Source: Catajapyx aquilonaris
Lineage: Eukaryota
Length of the DNA: 64,000 nucleotides
Direction: 5' to 3'
Assembly: GCA_000934665.2 (NCBI GenBank)
Contig: JYFJ02001649.1
Span: forward strand, 1 to 64,000
The notes beneath the pieces are model-generated. The model was not told the DNA's origin. It made no database searches and saw only the letters and a list, made by a program, of their open reading frames with translations. Of the stretch, positions 22,000-61,974 are shown piece by piece. Position 1 is the first letter of the stretch. Each line of letters begins with the position of its first letter. A program made the translations under genes and the position numbers.

Positions 22000-22913
22000 A
22001 TGCAAGCTCCTTCTGCCTAACAAGCCCGGTGTCCGGCACATCATTTAGTACATGGCATCGGGGTAGTAGCATAATCCTGGTGTGTACTGCAACCGGATGA
22101 TCCGCATACACACTGTTGGTGCCTGTTGTGGAGCACATGACCTGCCCGCCATGTTGGTGCTCCTCTGCAGAAAAGCGCATTGCACCCCCTCGTGTATGTC
22201 CGCAACCACCCCCACCCCCTCGTCCCTCTTCCTCCCCTCCTGAAAGTACAAGGAGTGCAAGGAGGGAGGCCGTACATATATAAATATCCATCCGCCGTTG
22301 GCTGGCTGGCTGGCTGGCTGCTTCATCCCGACACCCGACCGCCCTGCCCGCCTCTCCTCCCGTGCGTGCGTGCGTGCGTGTGTTGTAAANATGCAAGCTC
22401 CTTCTGCCTAACAAGCCCGGTGTCCGGCCCATCATTTAGGTATATAGTCTGGTGACCCGGGGTAGCTTGCCCCCCTGGGGTAACTGGTTGTTTACTGCTA
22501 TCCTTTTACATATGCTGCCATGGTGATTGCCCCCGGGATAGCTTACCCGGGGTCATCAGACTAGGGGCCTTAGTACATGGCATCGGGGTAGTAGCATAAT
22601 CCTGGTGTGTACTGCAACCGGATGATCCGCATACACACTGTTGGTGCCTGTTGTGGAGCACATGACCTGCCCGCCATGTTGGTGCTCCTCTGCAGAAAAG
22701 CGCATTGCACCCCCTCGTGTATGTCCGCAACCACCCCCACCCCCTCGTCCCTCTTCCTCCCCTCCTGAAAGTACAAGGAGTGCAAGGAGGGAGGCCGTAC
22801 ATATATAAATATCCATCCGCCGTTGGCTGGCTGGCTGGCTGGCTGCTTCATCCCGACACCCGACCGCCCTGCCCGCCTCTCCTCCCGTGCGTGCGTGCGT
22901 GCGTGTGTTGTAA
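22000..22913. repeat. Tandem duplication of a roughly 390-bp segment joined at an N; probably two haplotypes assembled side by side
   Basis: 22000-22389 recurs at 22391-22913 almost identically, with N at 22390. The second copy carries an extra 131-bp insertion. Confidence 0.85.
22439..22569. mobile_element. PIF/Harbinger (Tourist-like) MITE, TTA TSD
   Basis: tta|GGtataTAGTCTGGTGACCCGGGGTAGCT ... AGCTTACCCGGGGTCATCAGACTAggggCC|tta. The empty site with a single TTA is at 22045-22047. Confidence 0.8.
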
Positions 22914-23421
22914 ACCCCCCTGCTGGCTGCATGGTCCTGACTGACTGACTCAACCGGGCCGACCATACCAGAGGTGACTCCAGGCTGCCTACTTGCATCC
23001 GTCGGCCACCATTCCTCCCTGGAGAGTTTTTGGGTTTGTTTCCCCCCTTCCCTTCCTCTCTCCCGCCTTCCTTCCTTCCTTCCGATCTTCTCTCCCTTCC
23101 CTCGCCCGACCCGTGGTCCTGCGGGAGAGGAGGAGGAGAATCCCATTCCCCCTCGGAACAGGCCCAGGTTGTGAGTACCTCCCCTTCCCCTCCGTGTGTT
23201 GAGAGGAGTGTGAGCCTGTACCGGCCAAAGAGTGGTCCAAGATTCCGGTCCCAAGTGCACCAGGCAGCTCCCAGGGCGCCTCCTCCTCCTCCTTTCCTTC
23301 CCCTCGCCCTGCCCTGTCCGCTGCCCAGGGGCCTGCCCCTGCCCCGACCCTTCCTCCCAACCCCCTCCAGCCCCGCGCCCAGACCCACGCTGCACTTCCT
23401 CCAGGGCAGGAGGACGGGAGG

Positions 23422-29400: not shown

Positions 29401-32059
29401 AACCGTTGTTAATATTCTTACTGCCAAAATTATTTGAAAGCTGCTGCTACACATTTTGTAATTGGATTTTGCTAGTGTGGCCAAATATTAATAAGACATG
29501 TTCTTCACATGAGTGGGAAAGTCAAACAAGAACGTGGTCAGTAATAATCAGCTTAGTTTCAAAATATTGCTAACTTCTGTGGGCAGTTGACTTGGATTTC
29601 ATTTTATATTCTAAGCATCCTCCTGCAAGACGCTCTTCTTTGCAACCACATTCTTTTCTGTGACTCCTCCATCCACATCTGTCTTCAGCCCCTGCTTATT
29701 CTCCTCTCGCTTTCATCCAGCCCATTGGTAACTTTTCTCACTTGTCATGTAACTGAATAGCTGTGCCTTATCCCTCTTAATAAGCCCCAACTAAACTCCA
29801 TTAGTTATTGATGTGTGTTGAAAAATGTAGCTTGCTGTGTTTTGTTCAAGCTCTGAGCCATTCGTGTTTGTGTTTCTGCAGAACCGTTGCCCCAGCGTGA
29901 ACCAAGGCATCCAGAGCGCCGAATGCCCCCGCCGTCTTCAGCCCCTCCCCAACAACCTGCCCCACCCCTGCAGGTTGAAAAGGACAAGCCTGTTCCTGTG
30001 TCGGCCCCCACATCTGTACCACCCCCAAGCTCAGCCCCTACCCAATCACTCCCGCCAAAGCGCAACCCAAAGACCCGCGAGGAAAAAATATCGAACCTTA
30101 AGGAGTTTGGCCAGGAATTTAACCTTACAGATGGCCTCGAAGATAAAAAGAGGGCACCTTCGCAACATCCTCCTCCTCCACAGCATCCACCGCCTCCCCA
30201 ACACCCACCACCACCACAGCACCCACCGCCACAGCATCCTCCTCAGCACATGATGCCCCACCTGCAGATGCATCACCCTCCACCACCGGTCCCACCTCCT
30301 GCGCCTGTGGAAGACACTGAGATGGACAAGGTGGCAAATACCTTGAAGAAATCCAACTTGAACCCCAATGCGAAGGAGTTTGTGCTCAATCCAAATGCAA
30401 AGACTTTCACCCCTCGCTCCCCCTCCACTCCAACTCCCCCGCGTCCTCACACTCCACAGACCCCACAGTTGATGCCGCCACCTGCTCCCCCAACTGGCAT
30501 GCAGGTGATGTCTTCAGTGATCCCAACCTATGTGGTGACCACAGCGCAGCCTCCGTTCACCAATAACCAGGGTGGGAGGTACCGGAAGATGGGTGCAATG
30601 CCTCTCCCATTGCCCCACAGGCCAGATCTTGCCTCATCAATGCAGGTTGCTGCTGCCACGGGCCAGCCTTTGCTGACACAGCCCACCATGCCGCAGTTCC
30701 CTGTGCCCTATGCACCGCAGGGGACCATCATTCACCATGGGGCACCCCAGCACTACCACCCCATGATGAGGATGGTCACCCCGCAGGGAAACCTCGTACC
30801 TGTTGTGCCCGGCTCTATGCAGTATCACGAAGCTGTTGCTGCTCAGCAACACTTGACGCAGGTAGGGCTATTATGGTATCCCTCCAGCCAGCCAGTTTGT
30901 GAATATTGATTTTGGCATCTACCTACCTGCTGACAGCGATATTGCATGGAAGTTGATTCTACCTATGAACTCCTCCTGCCTGTGAACCGCATGTTTTGAG
31001 ATGCCTCTATTTTGCTGTGAATAAAGGTGCTAATTGTTGCTGATTTTTGGTTCTAGGTGTACATGAGCAATCCCCAGGTTCCCCAGCACCCACCTCCCCA
31101 GAATGCTCCCTCACCAGCCCAGAGCCACCCCTCCCAACCACCTACTCCGGTGAGCGGAGGGGGCTCGTCAGGTCCTCCACCACCTCCCCCACAGATCCAG
31201 CACCATCCCCACCACCCCCACGCCCACCACCCACACCACCAGCCCCCTCCTACTCCACCCCACCTCCACCACCACCAACCGCCCCCTCCCCAACAACAAA
31301 ACCAGCAGTCGCAGCACTCCCAGTCCCAGTACCCACCTCCTCCCCAACCTCCCAGCAGCCAAGGCAGCACACACAATGCGGCAGCCGCGGTGGCTGCAGC
31401 AGCCGCTGCAGCTGCGTATCCTCCCATGGTGTTCATGCCCCCGCAGCAGCTGCCACCTGGCTCGCAAATTCTTCAGCACTCCCTGCCCATGTCCCTGTCC
31501 ACCTCTGGAGGGATTACTTCCATGACCATGACTGTGCCGCATCTGCAGTACATGCACCACACACAAGGTGAGGATTAATAATAATCAGTGTCACTTGATA
31601 TTCCACAGCAGGCTGACTGGAAATGCACAGCCGTGTTTGACACAGTCAAACCTGTTAATAATGGAATTTTACGAGACCGTGAAATTGTCATGTTGTGGAC
31701 AAGTTCCCACTATATTTGATACGGTAATTTCACGAATTCATATCATGTGCGTTTGCCCGTTCCCAGAAAAAATTACACTATGGACAGGTTTCGCTGTATG
31801 TGTTGGTACAGTGTTGTTAATCGCGCCGTACTGCTAGCGACATTTTCCGAAGGGGCATAAGAACGAATCTTGCTCACACGGCTTGCACTATTCGTTGCTT
31901 CAATTCGTTCTTCTGCCGCTTCGGAAAATGTCGCTAGCAATACGACGGGATCAATGTCCAATGCTGTACTTTGTGGTACCATGTATTCTAAACATGTTCC
32001 TCATTTCAGCAGCGCAGCATCCACACTTAGCAACGGCAGTGATGCCACATAGTCAATGA
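23422..32059 (+). CDS. ATXN2: Ataxin-2 homolog (LSm, LSmAD, PAM2, P/Q/H-rich disordered regions), about 972 aa
   Basis: Exons 23422-23462, 27154-27259, 27336-27668, 28202-28326, 28571-29343, 29882-30861, 31057-31567, 32010-32059; 2919 nt in frame. LSm [12 protein letters not shown] and FQTDTAIS; LSm[24 protein letters not shown] and [22 protein letters not shown]2 [10 protein letters not shown]. The last exon is less certain; read-through gives GED* at 31578. Confidence 0.93.
24880..25200 (-). mobile_element. Highly degenerate non-LTR retrotransposon fragment (CRE-like zinc-knuckle/RLE region)
   Basis: Stop-interrupted minus-strand translations [12 protein letters not shown]...HVGSEP and [25 protein letters not shown] resemble CRE-clade C-terminal motifs. 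Recognised from memory only. Confidence 0.3.
26296..26409. mobile_element. Hairpin MITE, same family as 40405-40546
   Basis: CTATCAGTCCAACAAGAATTGTCGCAGCGGCAGCGCACGAACT ... AGTTTGTGCGCTGCCGCTGCGACAATTCTTGTTGGAC. Confidence 0.7.
29082..29228 (+). repeat. Coding (His-Gln-Gln)16 repeat in Ataxin-2
   Basis: 9-bp units CACCAGCAG, CATCAACAG and CATCAGCAG/CATCAGCAA. Confidence 0.9.
31832..31940. repeat. Inverted repeat in the last Ataxin-2 intron
   Basis: TGCTAGCGACATTTTCCGAAG ... CTTCGGAAAATGTCGCTAGCA. Confidence 0.65.
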
Positions 32060-33137: not shown

Positions 33138-36100
33138 CTACATATGTAGAGAAGTATCAGGTTTGTGATGGTCATCCTGGGACTCTTGTTCTACAGATTT
33201 CTCGACTACGGGTTCCGAGATGTGCGATAAGCCTATAGCCCTCAAGTTCTCTACTGCATTCTCAACATGCGGCTGTAATAGAAAGAGAAATATCAGTAAT
33301 ATAGAGTAGTAGGCCTATCTAAACCAAAGATCATTATCATAATAGGCAGGTCCTATCTACAAATAATTTACACACTTTATATTAGAATTTGTGAATAATG
33401 AGATATTGAAATTATGAAAGGACGTATGTCATGTGAAAAGAACCAAATACGAGCCTGTGGATAATTGTGTAGTTTTGCTGTCACAAATGTAATTATTGAC
33501 CGTTATGTCAAGGTACCTACCCCAAGTTTGTCTTCTTGAACATGTAGAGATTTGTGCTTGCGGTAGAATGCGCTGTTGCTCATCATGTTTAGGACAATTA
33601 GGTCGCACAAAAAGGGAGTCTGAATGGAGAAAGGAGATCTAGTTAGGTAAGTAAACTAATGATGTACCCGTTCTGCTTTTGTGTTGATTAGTTTCAAGTT
33701 AATTGCATCATATTTGCCTAGCTTTGCAACGGGGAATGTGGAGCAGGGTTTACAACAGACGGGCAAGGACAATGGCTAATCACAGGTGGAGGGTAATACT
33801 GTAACTATTCTGTGGGGTCTCAGCTAGTGTGATTCTTGGCAGATGTCATGAGAATCCAACCAAAGTATGCAACCCAGAGAGTACAGTACTTACGAGCCCA
33901 AGAAGTGCAATACCAGGTCCAAGGTTGAACAGGAGTGACGCCATGTTGAACTTGCCTGCACGTCCCTGGACAGTGATTGTAATCCGGATTCCAAACACTT
34001 TGTGTAGCGTACGCCGACTTAGCTCATGATAATCTGCATACCTGAAGTTGAAGCCTGGTGATGTAGTGGTTAGCGTGTCCAAACGGTTGAAAGTATACTT
34101 GGGCAGGCAGTACTGAATGTCGAAGTCCAAGTTACATTCCCAGTTGATTGTCATTGATATCAATGCACCCTGAAAATTATTGGATTGCATTGGTATGCTA
34201 TGTATGTTGTGGTTGACACATGCTTTTTTTTGAGGTTAGAAACACCGCTGTTTGATTCAGTCCCACCACCACCACCACCACCGCTCTTGCCACCACCTAT
34301 TGCAATGCGGAGAAACACGTAATGAAACATACGCGCAGAGAAATATTGGAGAAGTCCTCGCCTGCTCCAGATATCATGTCACCTAGTTTGAATATGGGGC
34401 AGTAAGGGTGATTCTCCGGGTGATACGTGCACTTTTTGAGGTCTTTGTCATGGCTGTACAGTACATTGTGGTGCTTGTAGGAAGGACCAAATTTAGGGAA
34501 GGAAATGCTGTTCTTGACCATGATTGTGTAATGCTTAGCACCTTCCATTATGGGATGACTACCAAACACTGGTATATCATTCTCCACTGGACACCATGCA
34601 TGGACCTCGCACACATGAATGGAGTCATTCTTCTCACTGGAACTGGGGATGCACCTTCCAGTGGCAGCTCCATTTCCATATGCAAATGTGGCATCCTTCA
34701 CGCAAGTGTTGTTCTCTGGGTTACATCTTGCTTCCTTGACATCCAAAGCCTTACAGCGAGACCAAAAGAGGGATTATGAAACTCGGTACATGGTTAATTC
34801 AAAATTCACTTACTTCAGGACATGTTCCTTGTGTCTGGTTTGGTGTAAGGATCATATTTGTCATGATAAACAATGCTCCATTTTCTGTGGGAGGGATGAC
34901 AAAATCTGCAACATCCCAAACACGATGATAAAGGTGTTGGTACTTCTTGTGAGCCTCGTTGCAAGTGAAATTTGGGCTGTTGTATGTTACTCCCTTCACT
35001 TTTGTTACTACCACACTATCAATGTTTCCATATGACTGGTAACCTTTCTGCCAAATCAGCACATATCTGGAAATAATAACAATAATTCCTTAAAGTGAAA
35101 TTAAACTTTCCCAAGTCAGGAACATTGCCACACAGTTAGGAAATGTGGTCTTGGCCAATAACGTTCCGCAATTAAATGTTACACTTTACTGTTACATTTT
35201 TTCCCCCCTGCAACTAATTCTAATTTGTCTGGGAATTAGAAAAACAAACTAATTTGAGGACGTTGTTAAACTCAGCTGTCAGTATTACACTTTGCAGGTG
35301 AAATGAAGGATGTGAAATTTTCCATGGTAATAACTAATAAGCAAGTGTTGACAGTAATTTCCTGTGAAGGTCAAAATCTAAACCACATTTTGGTTGTTCA
35401 AAATGGTACACCACAGTAGGGAATGATTGATTAAGGTCAACACGAGCTCTTTGACCATCTTGGCTTTGCTTGCAATATGCGATGACCGCTGCTGTTATTC
35501 CTAGTTATTAATAATTTATTAATAATTCTGTTATCATATTAGGCCAGTTATGTATAAATTCGTAGAACGATTGCGTAAATTTATGATTAACCGTTTTATG
35601 GGTAGTGGCAGGGGTGTGAGAGGGTATTGTTCAAGAGAGAAATCATCTTTAATTTGGTTGTACCTTTACAACATGTATGAATTTGATCTTGCCACGCTTT
35701 GTCTATCTTTTTCAATGGAAGCATCCCTTATTTTATTAATTAATGCCGGGTTGCACCGGCTCCCGGAAAATTTATCCGGCCGCTGGATAGTTTGTTATTC
35801 ATTGTTGTCAACAGTTCTGTCAACAATGAATAACAAACTATTCTGGCTCTTCTGCGGCCAGATATATTTTCCGGGAGCCGGTGCAACCCGGCCTAAGTCT
35901 TTTATAAAACCGTTAGTTGTCTATGTTTCCTTCTACCTGTTGCCAATTTTCCCAAGAAATTCCAGCCAGAGAGAGGAAATTTTCGCAGTTCCTTCTCCAG
36001 GGTATATGTGGATTTTATTTTAAGAAGTTGTGAGTAACAGCAAGTATGTTCTCTTCATTTTCTATCGATTATTTTAGAAGAAATGTGATCATATTTAAAT

Positions 36101-38191: not shown

Positions 38192-38570
38192 ACTTACACG
38201 CTTGCAGGTAACCTCCGCTGTTATGAAGCTAGTGGTTGGCGTGCACACCCATACAACCAGACCTCCGGTTTTTAACTACTTATTGTTCTACTCCATAAAA
38301 AAATACATGTATCCACACGTCGTCACGCACACGTCCGTTTGAAATTGCGCGATCGGGATAGTATCGATCAGTTCATGATTACAACTGGTGCTAGCTGCTA
38401 CTGGTGGTGGTAAGCAGCTACTTCAGCTACAATAGTGGCTACTTCCTTTGGCTACTTCAGCTACAATACTCCTTAATAGTGAGTCGATACTGACCTACTT
38501 GCCATTTTCGCTCCCTTTTCGCTCGTGGTCTGTGTTGCTGCTCTAGTGTGGTCAAATACTAGGAGAGGCC

Positions 38571-39011
38571 ATGGCGCAGGGGAAGCTGAAGGTGAAGGGG
38601 AAGGTCCCGGCCAGCCAGAAGGGCAAGAAGAAGGCGGGAAGAGGGGGCAGCGGGAAGAAGGGAGGGGGAGGAAGGGTGCAGAAGAAGAGACCCAGTGAGT
38701 ACCCCATTTGGTGTGGGTGCACCCAGCAGGGTTGAGCCAGCCCTGTCATTACCATTGCTTGTTCCTCCCGTTCAGATGCCCCGGTGGCTCCCAAGAAGTC
38801 CAAGATGGCAGAGAGGAGCAAGCTGAAGATGGCCGTCACAAAGGAGATCAACGTCAACATCGAGCAGACCCTCAGGGCCAGGGCAACGGGCAGCGGGAAG
38901 CCCCTGGCCATACTCAAGGACTCTGACGCCGCAGCCGCAGCCTCCACGTCCTCCTTTGCCACTGCAGCGCCAAGCAAGAAGAGGGGCAGGAAGGGAGGGA
39001 AGAAAAAGTGA
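38571..39011 (+). CDS. C19orf53: UPF0390 / Leydig cell tumor 10 kDa protein homolog (C19orf53-like), copy 1, 119 aa
   Basis: Exons 38571-38694 and 38776-39011. MAQGKLKVK...VAPKKSKMAERSKLKMAVTKEINVNIEQTLRARA...KPLAILK matches the family pattern. Confidence 0.82.
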
Positions 39012-40304
39012 TCTGAACAAGCCATCGTTTGCCACAACTTGTTTTATATCGTGTCTCAATGTAAGTTAATACTCTGTATCTGATCACTGTTACCACCAAC
39101 AGAGCCAGTGGATGTTGCCTCCACACAAATGTTAATCCACCTGACGATGGATGAATAGTTACACAGCTTTTCAAAGCCAACAGGGATGGACAGATCATCA
39201 CCAAAAAATCAAAATGTTAAACTATTTTTATCAATAATTGTGAACAAAGTTGTAGTTTTGTTTTTTAAATGTGCAATGCCCAAAACTACTGCAACTGCTC
39301 TACCACAGGGTTACAAGATGCACATTATTATTGTGCACTTCAATACTTTTTTAATAATGCTGCTTTTAAAGCCATATTGCGTTAATGCCCTTGTCGCCGC
39401 CGCCGCCTTCTGCTACAAATATTTGCCAATTCTTTGTGAAACCACTTTGATAGTTGGATTATATTAAGAACAAATACAAGTCCATGCTCAGCTGACGCAG
39501 CGATTCATATAATTATAGGTATAATTTTTTTGCAATCAACAGAGCAAGAAATATCTCATATTACCAGGCCATTTTAATGTACTTGTTACATGCCCATGGC
39601 ATTAATCCAGTACCAGTTTCAAGTAAACCGTAGGTAATTGGGGCATTACGTCACCAACTTCACTGATACATTAAAATAAGTAACAGCAAATTTGTTCTGT
39701 TTCTCATTGAAATTCTGCTTCTCATTTGTGCATCACTGGAGGCTATTGAAGCTGACATGATGTTGTAAAGCAAAGTTAAATTTGAGGATGCATATGAGAT
39801 CTAATTATGCATCATGAAGATTGGCAACTCCATTGTGGTCGCAAGTTTAAAATGTTGCCTAAAACATTAAAATGAAAAAAATGCAATAATGCCCTGTGAC
39901 AATCAAACGAGCTTAATGTGAAGTGGTAACGTAAGAAATACTTGTGTTCCAGTGAGAAGAGGTAACTACAATTATCATAAAGAGCAACATCAGGAGTCAG
40001 TAAATAAAGACACCAGTTTGCAAACATAAACATTTGTTACTGATTAAGCCTGTTACAATTGACATCTTATGAATAATAATATGATGTTGGGACTAGCCTG
40101 TGACAATAAATATTATGATACTTACAAGACAGATCTTAACCTGAGGCCAATCCTTCTGTCAGATCATGAAATGGCGACATTTACATAGGATCGTAGCTGC
40201 CATGTTATTGAGCTAGGCAGAACAAGGTCTTGACCAGAGTTGTTCCCTCATTCTAGCGTTCATTCTAACGCATTTGATTCCCAGTAATTCATGCCAGCCT
40301 CAGT

Positions 40305-43125
40305 TCAAGGTGTTGAGTTCTGAGAGTTCACATGGGCTCTCTCGTTTCCAGTTTCAATCTCTGTCGAGGTCTGCAAGAAAGATTGTAAAGGTCAGTTCCT
40401 GGTACTATCAGTCCACCAAGAATTGTCGTAGCGGCAGCGCACGAACTACACTCTACGAGCACTTCTCCATTGACTTCTCCCCCCCGGACGTGCTCGTAAC
40501 TGTAGTTCGTGCGCTGCCGCTACGACAATTCTTGGTGGACTGATAGGACATGGAATATGCAGAGGCATTTTCTTATAATTATGTCGCTGGAATCCACATT
40601 TGACTCAGAGAGACAGAGTTGGCCAGAAAAAGTTACCGACACCTACATCTCCTTGAAACACTGTATGCCTTGCTACTCTGTGTGCTATGTGGAATTGATT
40701 ATTTTGTGCCATCCTGACGACCACGCTGTCAACATTTAAGCAACTGCGTAGACATGATGCAGAGCACACCAAAATCTACTTCAGAATTTGCTTCTCAAGA
40801 GTTCCACGTATGAATGACACTACTGCTCCAAGGCGACGTAATCTTCTAGTCACCTTGCGGATGCATTACCTGATCTAACGTATCACTGTTTTGAAGCATG
40901 AGGTATTTGTGCTTGCGGTAGTATGGGCTGTCCTTCAGCAGGTGCAGGATGACCATATCACACAAAACACTTGTCTGGAAAAGAAAGAAGCCACAGATAT
41001 GTACAGTACAGTACAACAGCTTGATGCATCCTCATGCAGTGCATCACCCTGTGTAGGCTTTGCACTTACCAGTCCTAATAGTGCAATGCTGGATCCAATG
41101 TTGAGCAGCATAGTTGCGATACAGAACTTGCCTCCAGTTCCTTGAACATTGATTGCCAGCTTGATTCCAATCACTTTGTGCAGTGTTCGACGATGTACCT
41201 CATGATAATCAGCATACCTAAAATTGAAACCTGGAGATGGGGTCGAGGCTGGTTTATCCAGGCGGCTGAAAGTGTACTTTGGCAGGCAGTACTTCTGCAT
41301 GTCCCAGTCCAAGTTACAGTCCCATGTGATTGTCAGCGAAATCAGTGCACCCTGAAATAGTCATGCGGAATAGTCATTATTATCAATCGTTAGTTGGTCC
41401 AGCACCCTGTGCATGCGAGCCAAACAGTAGAAAATTGTTTTACAACATGAACCAGTCACAAGACGGAATTGGTCTTGCAACTGTCTCGTGCTCTTTGAGA
41501 AGAAAGCATGTCATGACAACGTACATGTAAGGCAATTTCTGAGTAATCCTCTTCTGCAGCAGATATAATGTCACCTAGTTTGAACACTGGGCAGTATGGG
41601 TGATCTTGTGGGTGGTACCTGCACGTTTGAAGGTATCTTTTGTCATTGCTATTTAAAGTGTTTTGATGCTTATAGGATGGGCCAAATACGGGGAAGAAAA
41701 TATTGTTTTTGATCATAAGGGTGAATTCCGTAGTTTCTTCTAGTATGGCGTAATTACTGATTGTTGGAAAGGGACTCTCCACAGGACACCATGCATGGAT
41801 CTCACATACATGAACCGAGGTGTTATGTGAACTGAGAATGCAGCGTCCAGTTGCCACCCCATTGCCAACCATGAATGGAGTGCCCTTCACACAGGTGTTA
41901 TTCTTAGGATCACATATTGCGCCAGGGGTATCTACAGCCTGAGTTTGACCAGAAAGTAAAACAAAGAAACTGTTGTCATTACTATGAAAGATCATAAACG
42001 AATACATCAAACTCTGGCTCACTTCATCACAAGTGCCTTGCGTCTGATTGGGTGTTATCATCTGGCTGGTCATGATGAAGACGGCTCCATGTTCTGCAGG
42101 TGGGATGACATAGTCTGCAACATCCCAAATACGATGATAGAGATGGTCAGATTTCCTGTGTTCATGTTTGTGAGTTCTTGCAAAAGGCTTGCTGTAGCTC
42201 ACGCCTTTCACTTTGGTCACCACCACACTTTCCACGCCTCCAAACTTCTGGTAGCCTTTCTGCCAAATCATCACATACCTGAGAAGAAAGATTGCTTCAT
42301 TACAACTGAATGAACTCGTGTGTTCCAAGAAGTTGTTTGTCATTGAATGTCTTTAAGAAATGCTATATTTGGAAGCTTTATCTTGCAGCACCCACACCTT
42401 GGCATTGAAAAATATGGCTAGTCGGCCTGATAGCAAATTGAGCAATGAAACGACATAACTGACAGGTATGCATGGGAAATGAAAATTCACTACATAAGTT
42501 GGTATGTTGGCAATGTTACGCAACAAAGCCATAAATATTTCACTAAACCGCTTGCTTATATTACGGGAGGCATCTCGTCAGGCCCTCCCAGCTGAGAGCA
42601 AATCTGAAACATTTGTTTTTCCTCACCCGCGGACATGTTATATGCTTACTCCTACACCTGCCAGTTTTTTGAGCCCACTTTGTAAACCATTTCAAGTTTC
42701 TTGCTACATCCACAGCATTGGCCAAAAAAACCACAAATGTTTACAATACAAACTGGGGGAAATATACAGCTCCAGAAATAACCAGCCCGGCACAGCAGAA
42801 GCAGCGGTACAGAGGTGAAGAATTAATTCTGCACTAATTATAATAAGTGACCATGAAGGAGCAAATCACATTTAATTTTAATTGGAGACACCACAGCTGA
42901 CCAGTGCATATGCTCCTCATCATTGAGTGGATATGAAGCCGTGCCGGATACTCACACAATAATGTAGGTGATAATGGAGAGCTGCACCAGCCGACCCAGT
43001 ACTCCTACTTTGGTGCTCTGGATGTGCATCTCCCGCGGTGTCTCATACTGGCAGAACTGCGCATAAAAGAATTCAGCCACACTCTTCTTGATGGCCGACA
43101 GACGGTCACCAGAGGAGCTCCTCAT
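40305..43125 (-). CDS. P2X purinoceptor, copy B, about 430 aa
   Basis: Exons 43125-42956, 42278-42023, 41938-41525, 41351-41070, 40974-40870, 40370-40305; 1293 nt in frame, same intron positions as copy A. Motifs QYETPR, VVTKVKG, RIWDVADYVIPP, CEIHAWCPVE, GFNFRYA, RTLHKVIGIK, LCD, YYRKHKY. Confidence 0.93.
40405..40546. mobile_element. Hairpin MITE, about 46-bp perfect TIRs
   Basis: CTATCAGTCCACCAAGAATTGTCGTAGCGGCAGCGCACGAACTACA ... TGTAGTTCGTGCGCTGCCGCTACGACAATTCTTGGTGGACTGATAG. Confidence 0.8.
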
Positions 43126-43332
43126 CCTTGACAACCAAGGTATAATGGCACGGTCCACGTCACCGGATGACACGCAGGCAGCCTAACCCAGACAGAGCGC
43201 AGCAGGATGCTGTTTGAATGAAGCTGGGCTTATACCATCGGGATGGAAGCTACTGCCATCATTAACTAATGTAGATAGCCGCTATCCTGCTTTCGATGGA
43301 ATTGCTGCGCTGTTTTCGACTCCATGGCGCTC

Positions 43333-43340
43333 TATCGATA
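43333..43340. promoter_or_regulatory. DRE motif (TATCGATA) in the short divergent promoter between P2X-B and C19orf53 copy 2
   Basis: Exact palindromic DRE within the roughly 340 bp between the two ATGs. A near-match TATCGATC lies at about 38363 in the copy-1 promoter. Confidence 0.45.
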
Positions 43341-43461
43341 CTGACCCTTCGTTTTCCTGTGATACTTTTGAGGGAAGCTTCGTTTGTGGCGCGCCCCGAA
43401 CCCACAGGTACAGCCAAGGTACAGCGATCGACGTTGGTTTGCAGGCCGATTTGGTGGAAGG

Positions 43462-43896
43462 ATGGCGCAGGGGAAGCTGAAGGTGAAGGGGAAGGTCCCG
43501 GCTAGCCAGAAGGGCAAGAAGAAGGCGGGAAGAGGGGGCAGCGGGAAGAAGGGAGGGGGAGGAAGGGTGCAGAAGAAGAGACCCAGTGAGTACCCCATTT
43601 GGTGCACCCAGCAGGGTTGAGCCAGCCCTGTCATTACCATTGCTTGTTCCTCCCGTTCAGATGCCCCGGTGGCTCCCAAGAAGTCCAAGATGGCAGAGAG
43701 GAGCAAGCTGAAGATGGCCGTCACAAAGGAGATCAACGTCAACATCGAGCAGACCCTCAGGGCCAGGGCAGCGGGCAGCGGGAAGCCCCTGGCCATACTC
43801 AAGGACTCTGACGCCGCAGCCGCAGCCTCCACGTCCTCCTTTGCCACTGCAGCGCCAAGCAAGAAGAGGGGCAGGAAGGGAGGGAAGAAAAAGTGA
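43462..43896 (+). CDS. C19orf53: UPF0390 / C19orf53-like, copy 2, 119 aa
   Basis: Exons 43462-43585 and 43661-43896; nearly identical to copy 1. Confidence 0.82.
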
Positions 43897-44462
43897 TCTG
43901 AACAAGCGCTGTTTTCTGATAAGTGTAGGTGGTTACAGGCTTGTAAAATAGTTACAACCAATTAATTGTTTTATGTAATTTTTCACTTAACCCATGGGGC
44001 CAGGAGTATTTTGGATTGTCACTTTTTAATAGGGGAAAGCACTAGGCTTCACGTAACAGCTAGCGAATTGCACACTATTGACCATGAAAGAGCCATTTTC
44101 ATCTTTCTTGGAGAACTACACAAACGTTCAAAGTCATGTTTTTGACAATGTGTACCTATGGTACAGGTTAAATCAATTGGTGAAGATCTTACATGGGCCT
44201 GCCTTGTTTCAGTACTTTTATTCCACCACGGAGGTCTTACTTCCCTTTTTTTACTGAAGGGAATGTTTTTGGTCTTATTGATTGTAGATGGACAAGAATT
44301 GGCACAAAAAAAATGTATATAAAAAGTATAACCTGAGCTTGCGTGACCGGATCTTGTGGTACCGGTACTCATTTATGTATACCATATCGTATTTTAGGGC
44401 CTGTAAATAATACTGAACACCTGCTCCAAAAGCATTTTCAAACAGACTAAGCAAGCAAAGGT

Positions 44463-46832: not shown

Positions 46833-48578
46833 TCATTTCTTCTTTTTCCCTTTCCCCCCCTTCCCTTTCCCCCCCTTGCCTTTCTTTCCTTTCTTCTTGC
46901 GGAACCGTCCAATCAGGTAGTACCATCGCCTCCAGAAGGCCTGGATCAAGAGCACTGCCCTAAGGCGCTTCTTCATCCACTGTTCCTCCAATATCCTCAT
47001 TTCCTCCCTCACTCGACGCTCTTCAATGATAGATTCATACTTCCCTTCCAGGTCTGAGCAGTGTATCTGCAGCTCCATGCACTCCTCCGTCTCCGTGTCC
47101 AGAAGGAACTGCAGTTTCTCAGCCTCCTCCTTCTTCTCAAACATGTCCTTGTCGTACTTGCGCACCCAGTTGCTGATCTCCGTCTCCAGACGAAGCTTTC
47201 GTCGGTACAGGCCCTCCAGGTAGTTCTCGTTGTTTTCCACCGTGCTTTCAAACCGCTGATGAGTGTTTCGTACTTCCTCCTGCAGCATCTTCTGGGTCTC
47301 GGCACTCTCGTTGGTGATCTCAAGCCGCGCTGTCTCCGCATCTTCGCAGAGCCGCTTCACCGATTCTCTGGAAACACGCTTGGCCATGTATATCTGGTGT
47401 TGCAACGTCCCCATGGTCTCATTCTGCATTCGGCGGGCCTTGGTCAGTGCTTCGTTCGCCTCTTCAATGTCCACCCTCAGCCTCTCAGAGGTCTCCACAT
47501 GTGACTTCTCCTGGATCCAGGCCTCGTACAACGTCTTCTGTCTGCGCTCTTTCTCCTCAGCCAGCTCCTGAAGACGCTGCCGACCGCACCGTCGCAGGTG
47601 ACGAAGAGCTTCTGCCAGATAGAGAAGAACCACTGACTCTTTCTTGGTCAGTTCCCTCTGGATGTTCTTCAGGACACGAGGGTTGTCGCGAAGGCCTCGC
47701 TGGACATCCCGGATGGCGTCGCGCATCTTCTGCCGGATGTCGATCTGCTCTTGCAACATGGACTCCTGATTCTGCCTCCATAACTCCGCCTCATGGATGT
47801 CCTCACTGCTCATGTCGTAGTCTAAGTCCTCATCGTCGTCAGGATCGTCATCCATCATATCGTCGTCTGAGTCTTCGTCAGTCAGATCGTCGCTGCCGTC
47901 TCGTTTCTTCCGCCTCCTCCTACGACGCTTCAGGCGCTTGGGTTGCGAGTCCAGCATGGCCTGCTTCTTCTTTAGGTTGATGTCGTCCCTCAGGCCGTAG
48001 TGGAGGCGAATTAAGGCACGCTCTATTTGTGTCCCAACCAGGTCCACCCATGGTTCCTCTCCTGGGGTGAACCGTCCCTCAAACACTTCTGGAAGGAGCG
48101 CCGGCATTGTCGCCAGCATCTCCAGCTTGTGGGCAGCTTCCTCCATCACCCTCAGGATCTTCTGTGCCTCTGGAGCCAACTGCTTCTCCCTCCGGTAGTC
48201 CGGAATCATGCGTCCTTCCATGGTCAGCTTGGCCTTGACTTTAGACTTGGTCGCCTTGTCCTTAGTTGGTGCCCTACTGGCCTTTCGAATTTCTACCAGA
48301 TCGGCACCTTCCTCCTCCTCCTCTTCTTCCCCCACTGACCCTACCCTCTCCCGTTCTTCCTTCTCCTTCTCCACAGCCGACTTCTTCCGCTCCTTCTCAC
48401 CACTGGCTTCCTCTCCCTCTACCTCTTCGTCGCTCTCATCTTCGTCGCTGGTTGGTGTGACCAGTGATGTCCTGCTGGTGGACGAACAGACGTCATCCGG
48501 CTCATCTTGATCATGGTCGTCCTGCCCATCGTCTGGACCAAACACCTTGACCTTTGTACCTTTATCGCCATCCGCCAT
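46833..48578 (-). CDS. DRC10: Dynein regulatory complex subunit 10 (IQCD-like), single coding exon, about 581 aa
   Basis: Long coiled-coil ORF with RRKLRLETEISNWVRKYDKDMFEK, an IQ motif (AVLLIQAFWR) and a KKKGKKGKGGKGK tail, typical of IQCD/DRC10. First ATG at 48578. Confidence 0.82.
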   Translation of the reverse strand: MADGDKGTKVKVFGPDDGQDDHDQDEPDDVCSSTSRTSLVTPTSDEDESDEEVEGEEASGEKERKKSAVEKEKEERERVGSVGEEEEEEEGADLVEIRKASRAPTKDKATKSKVKAKLTMEGRMIPDYRREKQLAPEAQKILRVMEEAAHKLEMLATMPALLPEVFEGRFTPGEEPWVDLVGTQIERALIRLHYGLRDDINLKKKQAMLDSQPKRLKRRRRRRKKRDGSDDLTDEDSDDDMMDDDPDDDEDLDYDMSSEDIHEAELWRQNQESMLQEQIDIRQKMRDAIRDVQRGLRDNPRVLKNIQRELTKKESVVLLYLAEALRHLRRCGRQRLQELAEEKERRQKTLYEAWIQEKSHVETSERLRVDIEEANEALTKARRMQNETMGTLQHQIYMAKRVSRESVKRLCEDAETARLEITNESAETQKMLQEEVRNTHQRFESTVENNENYLEGLYRRKLRLETEISNWVRKYDKDMFEKKEEAEKLQFLLDTETEECMELQIHCSDLEGKYESIIEERRVREEMRILEEQWMKKRLRAVLLIQAFWRRWYYLIGRFRKKKGKKGKGGKGKGGKGKKKK

Positions 48579-48864
48579 GATGGTGCCCAACTGCGATCCT
48601 CCTGTTCACTGCAGGATGGATACACTCCTGTTACGGACAATCATTCGAACCAAATGGTAAAACCTACACTCACCTAGTTGCAACAGATACGACGATTTAT
48701 CGACAGCCGAATGCGGGGGAATGCAGGTCACCGACGTCGTCCGTCATCGATTGACCTACTCCGGAACATCCCTACCACAACTCTGAGGAGGAAGGTAGGG
48801 GGTGCACCTCTTTTCGTGCGATGTTATTTTTCAGGACAGCCAATCGGCGCATTGTGTTGGCCAC

Positions 48865-54932: not shown

Positions 54933-56141
54933 ATGAGATCGTCTGTTGCAACGGTACTGCTGCTGGCAACTCTATTGGCACTGCTGAGAGGACCTGGCGT
55001 GCACGCGAGAGATGGCGAAGAGGACACACTCCAGGAGAACTTACTGGACACCATCATGATATCTCCCTGGAAGTTTATCCAGCCTCCTCACCATCTGCCT
55101 GCACCTCTTGCATACCAAGACGAAGATTCCAGCATGGATGAAGGAATGGGCAGAATCGGGAGAGTCCACACCCCTGGTCCTCTTCATAAGAAGGAGTCGT
55201 TGCGGAACACCCTGTGGCTGCCACGTCCACTCACCCACGTAGACTACGCTTACCGACATCACAACCAGGAGCATGAACAAGGCTACGGAAATCTTCACAG
55301 GACCAGATATTCAAGTATAGCAAGGAGGGTGATTTCATATAGGAATGTTCCCTACTAATGTGCGCTTTGATTTGCAGCCGAAGATGACACTCCTCTGGAG
55401 GAAGGTGCCGAAGAAGAGCAGAAGCCAGCTGAGGACTTGTGGGATGAGTCACTGGTTCCAACCGCCAGCAGTGACATAAGCTCGTGGGAATCATCAGAAG
55501 AGGATGGGGCTGACGACAATGGTGAAGACGGAGAGGAGGACGAAGAAGAGGACGAGGACGCAAGAGAAGAAGACAAGCTGGAGTCATCCTCATCGTCATC
55601 TTCGTCATCTTCGGCACCGTCATCATCAGAGGAAGAGTCGACAACTACCAGTGCACGTATCCGCAACAGTCGCGCAAGAGCTAACCGTCGACGACTATCC
55701 GAGTGGTTCGACTGGCACATGAGTAACTGCCATTCCTCAGAAGCCAGCAACCGAAGCTGTCGATGGGTCTGCACAGACAGAAAGAGGAATCCTTGGGGCT
55801 TCGGTTGCTGCAGATGCAAACCAATCACCACCACCTCCGCCCCTACCACCACCATTAGCTCTCCTGTATCACAACGTTCATCCATGCTTCTTCTGCAGCC
55901 ATTCCTCATCCCTCTCCTGCATCCCTCCTCACCCATGGGCCAAAACAAGGGACCAATCATGACGACAACTCCATCCGCTTCTGCCCAAAAAGTTCCACCT
56001 AGAGCAGCTCAGGATGAACTCAGCTTTTTGCTATTGCGTCCCAACAAAGTAAGCCATTCCGCTGAAGAAGATGACGGTGATATGAATCAGAATATGATGC
56101 AACACAACAATTTGCTTCTTGAGAGAAAGCGACGACGCTAA
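54933..56141 (+). CDS. Orphan secreted protein C (signal peptide, His-rich, acidic and poly-Ser tracts, 6-Cys module), about 381 aa
   Basis: Exons 54933-55314 and 55378-56141 (phase 1). Signal MRSSVATVLLLATLLALLRGPGVHA; module CHSSEASNRSCRWVCTDRKRNPWGFGCCRCKP. AATAAA at 56285. Confidence 0.72.
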
Positions 56142-56597
56142 CACTTCATACACACCACTATATCCTAATACCCCCAATTAATATTTTCCGTACCACACAG
56201 GATACCGAATCGAGGCATTGTGTAAAAATATGCAGTATATTGCCGGCATTATTATTTACAATTATCCGCAATGTATTTTAAAGTAATAAAACATGTTCAC
56301 TTGCTATCGTGTTTCTTTAGTTTGGTTGAAAAGCTTTACATTTGAATGTTGTCGACTAGAACTGAAGTTGAACAGCCGCCCTACACATAACAGCAACGGA
56401 AGCACCGATCTAGCCAGGTTAAATACATAAACCAAGGCAACAGCTGTAAGATGAGGGGGTGGATGGTACAGACAACGAGCCTTGGCCAATTTGAAATTGA
56501 GCCAACAGAGTCGCAGAGTTGCAGAAGAGCCTCTTTTCCTTCAGTTGTGTGAAAGTGATCAGTGATTCTGGGACGTCTTTAGCCTGAAGGATCAAAT

Positions 56598-57618
56598 ATG
56601 CAAGCCTGGATACTGAATCTACTGTTGGCAAGCACACTACTGATAGTGACCAGTGGTTTTCCCACAAAAATTCATGAGCTTCAAACAAAACTGGTAAGTG
56701 TTACTCTATGTAGCATGTGGACCATATCACATTGTTTCATGTTCTTATCAGGAAGGTGGGTCAGAAATTGTCGTACCTTCACCATCGACAATCCCAGATG
56801 AAGAAGTGACAGACCTCTTTCGACTGACAAAGTCGGAGAAGAAGGCATGGCGAAGGGAGAGGAGGAAGGAAAGGAGGCGAGAGAGAAGGAGGAAGAGAAA
56901 GATGCGTCGTATGATGAAGATGACCAAGAGGAACAGAGTAGGCAGAGGAATATTCACTCCGGATCCACCCAAGATCAACGTGAGCCTCAACGAACTCTTC
57001 GGGACTACAACACCTCCCCCTGCCTTCTCAGCATACTTCCAGCCGAAGAAGCACGTGCAGACAGCAGTGTTCCTGTGGCCGGTAGTGTCCTTCTCGCATG
57101 CAACAGCCCAGGCCATCGCAATCACCGGGAACATCCCCACCGGCACAGCACGGGCCGAAAGAGCCAGGTTGAAGTTGGCCCAAAGTGGCCAGAAAGTGGC
57201 GGACAAGATCAACAGAAACAAAGAGAAGCCTCAGCAGCCGACCCAGAAGCCTCATCCACGTCTTCCTCAACCACCACCACCACCGCCGCCTCCTCCTCCT
57301 CCTCCCCCTCCACCACCGCCTCCACCTCCGCCTCCTTACCCTCCTCCCCAGCCCCATCAGCCCCCTCGATGGAACAATCAGTACGACAAGTACGGCCGTG
57401 GTAAGCCCACACCAGGAGGTCCTCAGCAACCATGGAACAGGGGGAACACCCAGCAGCAACACCAGTACGGGAGGAACAGGCAACCACAGAGATACCCTAC
57501 CAACCAATACGACGGACAGTACATCAAACAGCATCGGTACAACCAACACAACAAGAATTACCAACATGGCGGGCGCTCACCAGAACCACATTATTATAAC
57601 TCTGACGAACCGCGATAA
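56598..57618 (+). CDS. Orphan secreted protein D (Arg/Lys tract, 22-residue polyproline, Q/N/Y/G-rich tail), about 320 aa
   Basis: Exons 56598-56693 (MQAWILNLLLASTLLIVTSG...) and 56752-57618, phase 0. Mixed-codon polyproline at 57271-57336. Confidence 0.72.
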
Positions 57619-58384: not shown

Positions 58385-60637
58385 ATGGCAAGCTGCTTGT
58401 TAAGAATGGTCAAGTCTCCTCTGGTGATGGTAGCAGTGATGCTCGTCATGGTTAGTCATTAGCTTATAAGCTTCATAGCAATGTTGGCTGTGGGAGCTTA
58501 GGCAACAGTGCAACAAGGTGTTCCAGAGTCGAATATGCAATTTTTAAGCTCCTTTACTAACCAGACACACAGGTGGAACAACAATCAAAATGCACCGGAC
58601 TATTATTAGGGCAAAGGTGTTTCTTTTGTAAATTGATTCTATTGATCCCGGCATCTGAGCAATGATGTAATGAAATATTAATATTGAGAATTACGTTTCA
58701 AATTTTGTCGCTATAATTTCAACCAAGTTGCTAAACTATAGTGACGTGATTGTTTTCAGGCGAGTGTGATGGTTGACGACTGTGAAGGTGGCAGAGTAGG
58801 CGGAAGAGGAGGAGGCGGAAGAGGCGGCGGGGGAGGTGGTGGAAGAAGGGGCGGAGGCGGGTCAACGGGAGGTCACGGCACCGGAGGGTCGTCGGGAGGA
58901 ACCATCAGCCACGGAGGGTCAGCTTCAGCAGGAGGAGGGGCTGGCTGGAACACGGGTGGAGGAGGGTCGTCGTCTGGAGGATCAAGTGGTGGTGGACATC
59001 AGGTGCCTTCAGGGGGGTCAGGAGGTCAAGCGGCAGGCGGAGGAGCTGTTGCTGGTGGTGCGGCTGGAGCAGGTGGTAATTATGGCTGGAGAGACTCAGG
59101 AGGTCAAGGGGCCGGAGGAACGTCGGGTCAAGGGTCTGGAGGGGTACCTGGACAAGGGGGAGCTGGTGGACCAGGCAGATGGAGAGATCCAAGTCAAGGA
59201 GGAGCAGGAGGTCAAGGGGCAGTAGCACCACCAGGTCAAGGGTCTGGAGGGGTACCTGGACACGGGGGAGCTGGTGGACCAGGCGGATGGAGAGATCCAA
59301 GTCAAGGAGGAGCAGGAGGTCAAGGGGCAGTAGCATCACCAGGTCAAGGGCCAGGAGGAAACTATGGGTGGAGAGATCAAGGAGGTCAAGGGGCACTACC
59401 TGGTCAAGGGCCTGGAGGAGCTGGTGGACCAGGCGGATGGAGAGATCCAAGTCAAGGAGCAGGAGGTCAAGGAGGAGTGGCACCACCACCAGGTCAAGGG
59501 CCTGGAGGAAACTATGGGTGGAGAGATCAAGGAGGTCAAGGGGCACTACCTGGTCAATGGCCTGGAGGAGCTGGTGGACCAGGCGGATGGAGAGATCCAA
59601 GTCAAGGAGGAGCAGTAGGACCACCACCAGGTCAAGGACCTGGAGGCAACTATGGGTGGAGAGATCAAGGTCAAGGGGCAGTACCACCACCAGGTCAAGG
59701 GCCTGGAGGAAACTATGGATGGAGAGATCAAGGAGGTCAAGGGGCAGTACCGGCACCAGGTCAAGGGCCAGGTGGAAACTATGGGTGGAGGGATCCAGGA
59801 GGTCACGGCGCAGGTCACCGTCCAAACCAGCCCCAATGGCACGACAGAGATTCAATAAACAGGCAGGGGAGCAGTAGCAACAACAGAGGTCAATGGCAGC
59901 ACGGTGGAGGAGGCTGGTCAGGAGCTGGTGGCTATGGGCACAAACCAAAAAGTAGCCTCACCAAAAAATTAGCGGAGAAGGTCAAGGACACTTTTGCATT
60001 TCCAGGGAAGCACACCAGGGGCACTGTGTGGGGCGGAGGTTATGGCTATCACAACAAGCAGTACCGCCCGTCGTACCACTCTGGATGGAACACAGGTGGC
60101 AGTGCACTAGGAGGACTCATGCATGGTGGGCATCATCCTTGGGGTGCTTATGCGGGCACAATTGGAGGAGCCTACGTCGGATACCAGCTGGGTTCCAAAG
60201 TGTCCAAGAACATCCATCGCTTCATGTATGCAAGACCCAGCGTGTGGATCATTGCCAGCAGCAGCAGCCACGGCTGGCAGTGGAGGAGACGACACCGCGA
60301 CAATCGACATGACCCACTCAGATTTCACGGACACCGATTCTACATGCGACATTGGTATGGAAGTCACGTGCTGGAAGATAAATATGATTGGAACCTGGTT
60401 GGCATGGACATCAGCAATAGCACCAATGCGACACTTACTGACGACACAGAATTGTCAACCACTACTCTTCGACCAGGAATGCCTGTATGTGATTGGAGGA
60501 AGCAGCCACTATACTGCGCTGGTCTCGACTGCGCACAAGTGACAGAATATGACAAGCTACACTTTTTGCCATTCCATTGTTGCCATAAGCTCAGTCTTTC
60601 CATGCGGAACTGCCTCGATTTGGGAAATGACATTTGA
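58385..60637 (+). CDS. Orphan secreted Gly-rich repeat protein E with PrP/Shadoo-like layout and C-terminal 6-Cys domain, about 647 aa
   Basis: Exons 58385-58450 (MASCLLRMVKSPLVMVAVMLVM) and 58760-60637, phase 0. RGG N-terminus, ten WRD repeats, KPKSSLTKK, AGTIGGAYVGYQLGSKVSK, sequons NST and NAT, six Cys. AATAAA at about 60698. Confidence 0.8.
59073..59805 (+). repeat. Coding tandem repeats GQGPGGNYGWRDQGGQGA and GGAGGPGGWRDPSQG
   Basis: Ten WRD-centred units of two types, with TGGAGAGAT-type cores. Confidence 0.9.
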
Positions 60638-61974
60638 TATGTCTATTTACTCAGGTTGGACTTGAACACCAGTTAGTGTTATAAAAAATAATAGATAAAT
60701 AAATAAGAACAGCCAAACTCAGGATATTTCATCATTTTCAACCTTCAACATTGGACTTTGAAACATGTGTGGTGATTAGACCAGTAATGCCTCATTAATA
60801 AAACCTATATTAGTTTACTCGAGCTATATCTAACACTGTGAAGATATCAACACCAATTGCAAAGTTTCCTTTTGCGGAAATTCGTTTGTAACTTGCATGA
60901 CCTTGATTGCCCCGCATATACGCTATGAATATCGCTGTCAAAACACATGAATTAAATCCCTTACATTTCATGCTAACTTCATTACAGGCAGCGCAGGTGA
61001 CGGTCAATAGACATCAAATTCAACAATAAGCATTGTGTTTTAAATACAACATTCTACAGAATTGACGAATCTTCCAATGAGTTGTACCCTATCAGAAATA
61101 TCGGCTGATCGACCCCATTGTGTACACTTTTTATTACAACAGGTGAAGTAATAATTCGTCCCATTTTCACATCGTAAATAGTGTATATGACAGGTTTACG
61201 TCAGACTAAATGCGTTTTGATAGTTCATATCAAACTCGCCCATTTCCTTCCTCCCCTCCCCCCCTTACTTTGTCACAAACAATAACACGCAGATGACACT
61301 GGACGCTCTATAATGTCACAGTGAGTGTAAGTCAAGGACATCCAATTGCAATGCCAGGAGGGAATCTAGTTCCTCGTTAGCGCAAATTATGTAAATCCAC
61401 CGACTTTCCTCATTTCGACAGACAGTTCTCATCTGTTCTTCAGAAAAACTGTCGAACCCTGCGACCTTGAAAATCTTCCTGCAGATGTCTGTATGGCCAT
61501 ATTCACAGCAGAAGCAACACGTCAATGAAACATCTGCCATGTATGTGAGCCAGGTATGCATATGGTGCTGCATGATTAATAACACTTATAAGTCTACAAT
61601 GGCCAAGTTTTTCTGTGGCACACTTCACGATGTTGATGACACCTAATCATAGACAGTCATTTCCACAAGGCATTGTTCAAATTATCCTGCGTAAAATTCG
61701 CAATAGCCCTATTGTAACGAGACCCTGACTGTTGCTAATTTTCGACTCTATAACCTTTCTATAGTCTGTGGAAATAAATATAATCACCTGGTGCACATTC
61801 CATGCGAAATCCACCAATGACATTCCTCCACGAGTCACCATCAACATCTACAACTGGGCGTGCCTCACACTGTGTACAGTACGAAGCCCCAGATAAGATA
61901 TTGTCAAAATAACAACCACCACTGCAAATACCGCCGAAATTCATATACATCATATCCGACATAAATATAATTAT

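Follow-up and report, generated by a model that had tools for sequence, protein, structure and literature searches.

Does the gene at positions 58385 to 60637 of contig JYFJ02001649.1 of Catajapyx aquilonaris encode an invertebrate counterpart of the prion protein (PrP), or a protein of another kind whose modules stand in a similar order? The gene is on the forward strand of the 64,000-nucleotide stretch of this contig that was analyzed (here called the window). An initial annotation, made from the letters of the DNA, had described its product as a secreted protein with an architecture like that of PrP and Shadoo, either a distant relative or a convergent PrP-like design. Our analysis favors a different answer. 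By analogy with known glycine-rich proteins, we consider it reasonably probable that the gene encodes an orphan secreted, largely disordered glycine-rich protein that self-associates via spaced Trp, Tyr, and Arg residues and has a role in an extracellular material. That it encodes a genuine invertebrate PrP/Shadoo-like protein, be it by deep descent or by independent evolution, which would be anchored at the cell surface and undergo regulated oligomerization driven by a glycine zipper, appears quite improbable to us. Residue numbers refer to the full protein of 647 amino acids unless stated otherwise, and statements that carry a literature reference are limited to the parts of the cited papers that were available.

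The gene model comprises two exons. Exon 1 (58385 to 58450; 22 codons) starts with the ATG at 58385 and is followed at 58451 by the GT donor GTTAGT. The intron (58451 to 58759; 309 nucleotides, phase 0, GT...AG) has the donor ATG/GTTAGT and the acceptor ttgttttcag/GCG, and exon 2 (58760 to 60637) contributes 625 codons and the TGA stop codon at 60635 to 60637 in an open frame. The splice sites are canonical, the acceptor at 58759 is pyrimidine rich, and the splice is predicted from these sequence signals. Joined in phase 0, the exons give a product of 647 amino acids, 625 of which derive from exon 2, so that nearly the whole protein is contained in one exon, as the initial annotation had noted. 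An AATAAA hexamer is located at 60698 to 60703, 61 nucleotides past the stop codon.

We take this two-exon locus to be a real gene. The alternative is a nonfunctional locus, in which the frame is held open by GC-rich repeats or which represents a pseudogene or a misjoined model. Several facts are compatible with it, namely, that the repeats can also be read in other frames (265 and 350 amino acids), that no RNA run is on record, and that relatives were found nowhere in the collections searched. However, these other frames are open over the repeats only, whereas the open stretch in the frame of exon 2 spans 630 codons and includes about 260 nonrepetitive ones behind the GC-rich repeats. Also at odds with a nonfunctional locus are the canonical splice sites, through which exon 2 joins in phase to a signal-peptide-like exon, the presence of the hexamer past the stop codon, and the manner in which the repeat copies differ. 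A 13-residue repeat core occurs in five copies that encode an identical peptide, and the differences found at 6 of its 13 codons are all silent; such silent-only differences fit selection on this reading frame. A weak hint is provided by run X5, the kind of which is unknown. Its cover is confined to 59430 to 60714, beginning 670 nucleotides into exon 2 and leaving exon 1 and the intron bare. The X5 contig (1,026 nucleotides, 59689 to 60714) passes unspliced through the stop codon and ends 11 nucleotides past the AATAAA hexamer, where the DNA run continues. No contig joining the exons across the intron was seen in X5, whose cover excludes the intron, which speaks neither for nor against expression. 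Taken together, these data make a nonfunctional locus very unlikely, and we read the gene as probably lineage restricted.

The evidence for a glycine-rich material protein includes the composition and the repeats of the product. Exon 1, nearly all of whose codons specify hydrophobic residues, encodes most of a signal-peptide-like N terminus, as previously annotated, with the highest hydropathy in the protein (best 15-residue Kyte-Doolittle window of 2.88, at residue 20); judging from the sequence, cleavage would most likely occur after residue 23. The predicted mature chain opens with an Arg-Gly, Gly/Ser/Ala-rich region (58763 to 59047, residues 24 to 118) with 51% Gly, Cys30, and five Arg residues, which are embedded in poly-Gly at residues 33 to 52 and correspond to the RGG-rich start that had been noticed. 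This region merges into ten repeats rich in Gly, Pro, Gln, and Ala (59006 to 59794, residues 105 to 367), which are 21 to 36 amino acids long and all end in WRD. The variant GGNYGWRD is found in 6 of the 10 repeats and GGPG(G/R)WRD in the other 4. In addition to the ten units annotated initially, there is a degenerate eleventh that ends in WHDRD and extends to about 59851. Tandem Repeats Finder identified periods of 66, 108, and 150 nucleotides, with 74 to 92% matches between copies. At the protein level, a Trp, often as Tyr-Gly-Trp, stands beside Arg-Asp every 21 to 36 residues within a Gly/Pro/Gln/Ala spacer. Gly makes up 29% of the whole protein, next to 3.7% Trp and 4% His; for the mature chain, the values are 30% Gly and an isoelectric point (pI) of 9.6.

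Glycine-rich proteins are defined by a Gly content of at least 20% (PMC11772090). Given its Gly content, its hydrophobic N terminus, and its ten repeats, the protein belongs to the secreted glycine-rich class, although "glycine-rich protein" is a compositional class and not a homologous family. A tick glycine-rich protein offers the best comparison. Gly-rich regions hold its aromatic residues at regular distances from each other, an arrangement that leads to cation-pi interactions, coacervation, and a viscoelastic solid (PMC11772090). Secreted glycine-rich proteins of arthropods, such as those of tick cement, have in common with the protein studied here the signal-peptide-like start, a Gly content of at least 20%, and repeats with spaced aromatic residues, but they are of the GYG and GGX types, whereas the sticker is here composed of Trp, Arg, and Asp (GWRD) (PMC11772090). 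The protein also differs from the tick-type proteins in its additional glycine zipper and six-Cys end, and no sequence relationship was found. A second likeness is to the elastomeric repeat motifs of silk and seed storage proteins, in particular GPGGX and GPGQQ of spidroins, since the repeat core PGQGPGGNYG reads like these turn-forming units. In contrast to spidroins, the repeats are interrupted by the charged WRD and no Pfam family was matched; the conserved terminal domains of spidroins are modeled in Pfam, and none was found here. The gene is a new, unrelated variant within the broad kind of secreted glycine-rich repeat proteins.

The remainder of the protein contains the other modules listed in the initial annotation, and all of them are present. 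A basic linker rich in His, Tyr, Lys, and Trp (59849 to 60139, residues 386 to 482; 12 Lys and Arg, 8 His, pI of 10.2) harbors the Gly-Trp motif GGGGW (residues 404 to 408) and the segment HKPKSSLTKK (59939 to 59968, residues 416 to 425). About 60 residues separate its KPK cluster from the core (residues 487 to 505), which forms part of a glycine zipper, (GxxxG)4, with Gly at positions 484, 488, 492, 496, and 500 (60143 to 60208). The zipper segment is rich in Tyr and Gly and, with a grand average of hydropathy (GRAVY) of 0.06, does not resemble a membrane span. It is followed by a basic Arg/His/Trp-rich segment (60209 to 60373, residues 506 to 560; pI of 11.8, 8 His) with the cluster RRRHR at residues 531 to 535, for which proteolytic processing is conjectural. 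Two overlapping putative N-glycosylation sequons (60416 to 60433), N575-S-T and N578-A-T, are located in an acidic Ser/Thr-rich stretch, and the protein ends in a six-Cys segment (60488 to 60634, residues 599 to 647) with the spacing C-x8-C-x4-C-x15-CC-x9-C. The chain does not end in a hydrophobic tail; toward its C terminus, the 15-residue hydropathy peaks at 0.61 (residue 629). The Cys residues are at positions 599, 608, 613, 629, 630, and 640, in addition to C30 and C4, and with the predicted cleavage the mature chain would contain seven, an odd number. Six Cys within 42 residues suggest a small knotted module.

Whereas the gene structure, composition, repeats, and motifs, as well as the lack of detectable relatives in the collections searched, are read from the data, secretion, disorder, self-association, a material role, and a link to neighboring genes are inferred. 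The ten repeats may act as a sticker-and-spacer array, with Trp and Arg-Asp stickers set in flexible Gly/Pro/Gln/Ala spacers. By analogy with the tick protein, the stickers would drive self-association through cation-pi contacts and coacervation to a gel or solid (PMC11772090). The (GxxxG)4 zipper could serve as a tight-packing or oligomerization element, as suggested by the packing described for GxxxG motifs (PMC10885112), the basic His/Arg-rich segments may bind polyanions or metals, and the six-Cys end together with Cys30 may cross-link or anchor the protein. Its most likely role would be that of a component of a matrix, cuticle, adhesive, or cement, with two low-complexity, putatively secreted proteins from the genes just upstream as probable partners. 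Self-assembly, which had been proposed initially, is plausible from the sequence. The second proposal, metal binding, appears unlikely in its PrP-style form of copper bound by the repeats, since there are only 4 His among the 267 residues of the repeat region and no regular His in the ten WRD repeats.

A number of points weigh against this interpretation. (i) No RNA run was listed, and no orthologue turned up in the collections searched. (ii) No match to a named cuticle, silk, cement, or matrix family was found in Pfam at an E value of ≤10, and the compositional class to which the protein is assigned predicts little. (iii) The hydrophobic N-terminal run of about 15 to 17 residues could be an uncleaved signal anchor, in which case the protein would be membrane tethered and not secreted. 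(iv) A material role leaves unexplained that the core matches that of PrP far above the expectation from composition and that PrP clusters top a language-model search, as detailed below.

Searches for relatives gave a consistent result. The exon 2 product and its subpieces were compared with Pfam at E values of ≤1 and ≤10, and no family reached its cutoff; for this search, as for that of the PDB, it applies that the HMMER filters hide very weak matches. Sub-threshold matches concerned the core, namely, PF05433 (20.1 bits; cutoff, 24.2), PF13488 (16.6 bits; cutoff, 25), and one bacteriocin model that was likewise below its cutoff. PF05433 and PF13488 are bacterial outer membrane lipoprotein domains; the core aligns to both over about 30 to 40 positions, but the scores below the cutoffs point to a shared motif type and not to membership. 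For the repeats, the Arg/His-rich part, and the six-Cys end, nothing was listed at either E value. The same holds for Prion, Shadoo, and CX, for which the initial annotation had recommended a Pfam check. Cuticle, silk, and WAP/antimicrobial peptide families gave no Pfam match at an E value of ≤10, nor was any known cuticle, cement, or silk family, the alternative considered in that annotation, matched at this threshold. Word-indexed searches with residues 375 to 625 and 90 to 375 of the exon 2 product returned no relative among proteins of 343 to 1,094 amino acids, and phmmer with the last 265 residues returned 0 matches at an E value of ≤0.001 among 1.84 billion representatives, which were not restricted in length. 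Among JGI metagenome contigs there were 28 pattern matches, 0 of which were confirmed; tblastn of the protein against the window revealed no second copy; and a search with Rfam at gathering thresholds retrieved nothing in the window. A full-text literature search with three repeat peptides found nothing, a result from which it does not follow that the protein is unpublished. AlphaFold2 single-sequence models, for which there were no relatives to align, had mean predicted local distance difference test (pLDDT) values of 33.3 (265 amino acids) and 39.8 (110 amino acids) and were unusable for a comparison with the PrP/Doppel fold, which has three helices and two short strands.

The term "orphan" needs to be seen in the light of the source of the DNA. 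Two tandem P2X receptor genes are encoded on the reverse strand of the window (34297 to 34773 and 41456 to 42352; Pfam P2X_receptor E values of 6.6e-36 and 5.1e-57, respectively), and the larger open reading frame (ORF) encodes about 250 residues of the domain without interruption. Its identity to the matches listed from a collection of 5.8 billion sequences was at most 44%. The best-scoring named matches, at 40 to 43%, were from spiders, a horseshoe crab, and an ostracod, whereas the vertebrates listed reached at most 39%. This pattern indicates an invertebrate animal of a lineage that is poorly represented in that collection, in agreement with the invertebrate origin proposed initially. The protein of interest had no self-match in the protein collections, which, together with the limited identity of its P2X neighbor, suggests that the proteins of this animal are absent from them. 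The designation as an orphan therefore holds only relative to those collections.

How far does the likeness to PrP extend? The order of modules is indeed that of PrP: a signal peptide, a basic N terminus, Gly/Pro/Trp repeats, and a Lys-Pro-Lys cluster, followed by a GxxxG zipper ending in G-Y-x-L-G-S, two sequons, and then Cys (PMC4324250). To this can be added that nearly all of the coding sequence is in one exon in both cases. The core was compared with the 19-residue PrP core quoted in the initial annotation, the only PrP sequence used, by ungapped BLOSUM62 scoring and 20,000 composition-preserving shuffles per region. Residues 487 to 505 scored 45 against the PrP 19-mer, with 9 of 19 identities. 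This score was reached by 6 of 20,000 shuffles of the whole protein and by 1 of 20,000 shuffles each of residues 386 to 647 and 386 to 520. Five Gly residues in zipper register, on the other hand, occurred in 62% of the whole-protein shuffles and in 3.5% of those of residues 386 to 520; given the Gly content of the protein, the zipper by itself is unremarkable. The core match lies far above the expectation from composition. The likeness was, however, picked from a very large scan, and a chance of 1 in 3,000 to 1 in 20,000 per protein is therefore not decisive.

The ESM Atlas feature search gave a similar picture. With residues 383 to 647, a Prion/Doppel cluster was retrieved first (0.83; 152 of 256 features) and a major-prion cluster second (0.80; 142 of 256 features), followed by a nematode CX cluster (0.78); in this search, a score below 0.9 counts as no more than a lead, and one in three shuffled proteins attains 0.8 or more with its first match. 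No usable match was obtained with the C-terminal 147 residues alone, indicating that the Gly/Trp/His-rich zipper stretch, as opposed to a globular domain like that of PrP, is the source of the likeness. In the PDB, phmmer against chain sequences at an E value of ≤10 retrieved no PrP for the 265-residue piece, its two halves, or a 50-residue core piece. The best match to the core piece was a segment of a carboxypeptidase, which implies that matches of such strength occur in unrelated proteins.

These data bear on two PrP-related interpretations. According to the first, the protein is a convergent functional analogue of PrP or Shadoo, that is, a glycosylated cell surface protein. Instead of a glycosylphosphatidylinositol (GPI) anchor, it might use an N-terminal signal anchor that escapes cleavage, and its flexible, basic, repeat-bearing tail and its zipper would serve to bind ligands or metals and to oligomerize in a regulated manner. 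The module order, the rarity of the core score among shuffles, and the Atlas leads would be expected in this case, as would the His-rich stretches that flank the zipper on either side (8 His each in residues 386 to 482 and 506 to 560). In addition, the three GxxxG motifs that follow each other in PrP contribute to the packing of helices and fibers (PMC10885112); the present protein has four. We nevertheless consider such an analogue unlikely. The protein lacks a GPI-type tail, its repeats are poor in His, and its zipper segment lacks hydrophobic character. No Atlas counterpart was obtained for the C-terminal 147 residues by themselves, the best PDB match to the core piece is a carboxypeptidase and not PrP, and coincidences of the frequency estimated above are unremarkable in a scan of that size.

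The second interpretation is true kinship, in which the gene would encode a very distant member of the PrP/Shadoo family or of its ZIP ectodomain ancestors and would represent the first invertebrate PrP-like gene. It can draw on the same module order and core motif, on the Atlas lead, and on the fact that prion genes have almost their whole coding sequence in one exon (PMC3203146). Yet Pfam never listed Prion at E values of up to 10, the PDB searches retrieved no PrP at an E value of ≤10, and phmmer found no match among the representatives searched. The architecture of the C terminus is a further obstacle. The structures of PrP, known from several species, have N181 and N197 in the helix 2-helix 3 region that is bridged by its single disulfide (PMC4324250), whereas the sequons at 575 and 578 precede all Cys of the C-terminal segment (599 to 640), and six Cys in 42 residues are ill suited to a three-helix domain with one disulfide. 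No GPI signal is present, and prion genes are described as known in vertebrates only (PMC3203146). The neighboring genes of the window, which encode ataxin-2 and P2X receptors, also differ from what we take to be the genes flanking PRNP and SPRN. We regard kinship as extremely improbable.

Other differences set the protein apart from both families. PrP is a vertebrate protein of 253 amino acids, to be compared with 647 in an invertebrate host; its repeats carry the His residues that bind copper, which are nearly missing here; and its hydrophobic domain is rich in Ala and Val, in contrast to the Tyr/Gly-rich zipper with its four GxxxG motifs. PrP, Doppel, and Shadoo all have a GPI signal, while the present protein has no hydrophobic C-terminal tail. 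The differences from PrP that the initial annotation had pointed out, namely, the missing GPI signal, the six Cys, and the longer gap between KPK and the core, were thus borne out. Shadoo (SPRN) shares Arg-Gly repeats directly after the signal peptide, a likeness of form only, and a later PrP-like Gly/Ala zipper segment with an N-glycosylation sequon (PMC4324250). It differs in its size of about 150 amino acids, its GPI anchor, and its lack of Trp repeats and a Cys-rich domain, and no sequence match to it was found. RGG runs are, in any case, common. The proposal of a distant relative or a convergent PrP-like design is therefore best divided. The likeness of layout is real, as indicated by the core shuffles and the Atlas search, but is confined to the low-complexity half and, to the extent that the sequence allows a judgment, would be convergent; to this extent the proposal is partly supported. 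Membership in the PrP family is not supported by the sequence. Apart from the core motif, for which the observations point both ways, every testable feature fails, among them the Pfam, PDB, and phmmer results and the order of Cys and sequons.

The six-Cys end raises another alternative, namely, that the protein is a multidomain precursor with an immune or antimicrobial function, of the kind found in arthropods, from which a cut at RRRHR may release a Cys-rich peptide. Hyastatin, of 11.7 kDa, is a glycine-rich peptide with a short region of Pro and Arg and a C-terminal domain containing six Cys (PMC2866484), and hyastatin, penaeidin, and type II crustin have in common with the present protein a module order of Gly-rich, then basic (here Arg/His-rich), then six-Cys parts (PMC2866484). 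The basic character of the whole protein would also be in line with such a function. Its 647 residues, however, make it several times larger than hyastatin and its kin, no antimicrobial peptide family was matched in Pfam at an E value of ≤10, and a long homogenized repeat array is more typical of material proteins; an immune precursor seems unlikely to us. The six-Cys end had no sequence match in the PDB beyond chance. For its spacing, the EGF-like, cystine-knot, defensin, WAP, and chitin-binding patterns were considered and dropped. None of them was listed by Pfam, and the CC doublet in the fourth and fifth Cys places is not known to fit any of these five types.

Two further genes precede the one encoding the glycine-rich protein on the same strand. 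The first (54933 to 56141) has a signal-peptide-like start in an ORF that runs to a stop codon at 55356 to 55358, and an ORF in the same frame (55371 to 56141) encodes an acidic poly-Ser/Glu/Asp sequence with a pI of 4.6; with two stops, its exon structure is tentative. It has an AATAAA at 56285 and matches no Pfam family. The second (56598 to 57618) has a signal-like exon of 32 codons (56598 to 56693), a GT-AG intron of 58 nucleotides, and a large exon (56752 to 57618). Its basic product of 320 amino acids (pI of 10.6), which matches no Pfam family, contains a block of Arg and Lys, 24 consecutive Pro residues, and a tail rich in Gln, Asn, and Tyr; an AATAAA is found at 57735. Like the gene under study, this gene has a short intron between a signal exon and a single large exon. 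The three tandem same-strand genes, encoding acidic, basic, and Gly-rich aromatic products, look like a tissue-specific secretory set.

Several other features were recorded in the window. Exons of an ataxin-2 homologue are located at 27300 to 31600 on the forward strand, with SM-ATX, LsmAD, and PAM2, a long His/Gln (QQH) repeat, and Pro/His-rich stretches, and Pfam also identified an RRM/LRR protein. A frame of 590 codons on the reverse strand (46833 to 48605) is rich in Glu, Lys, and Arg, has a Lys/Gly-rich tail, and matches no Pfam family. Two reverse-strand ORFs (38552 to 39043 and 43332 to 43961), about 4.8 kb apart, flank the larger P2X gene and share long near-identical translated stretches; they may represent a dispersed repeat or stem from a segmental duplication accompanying that of the P2X gene. 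A GC-rich block at 21947 to 23486 (57% GC in 22001 to 24000), in which several frames are open, looks like repeat or low-complexity DNA. The translation of the ORF at 21947 to 22435 contains an unknown residue, so that at least one of the three N bases of the window is located there.

If the gene encodes a secreted glycine-rich material protein, it adds one more orphan, fast-evolving secreted repeat protein to those of invertebrates, which would be relevant to the study of invertebrate extracellular materials and to templates for sticker-and-spacer design. Within that field, attention is merited by the regular Trp/Arg/Asp sticker and by the three neighboring genes with their acidic, basic, and Gly-rich products. 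There is a small chance that the likeness to PrP reflects shared function or descent, in which case the gene would bear on the purpose of the flexible tail and zipper of PrP and on the origin of its family.

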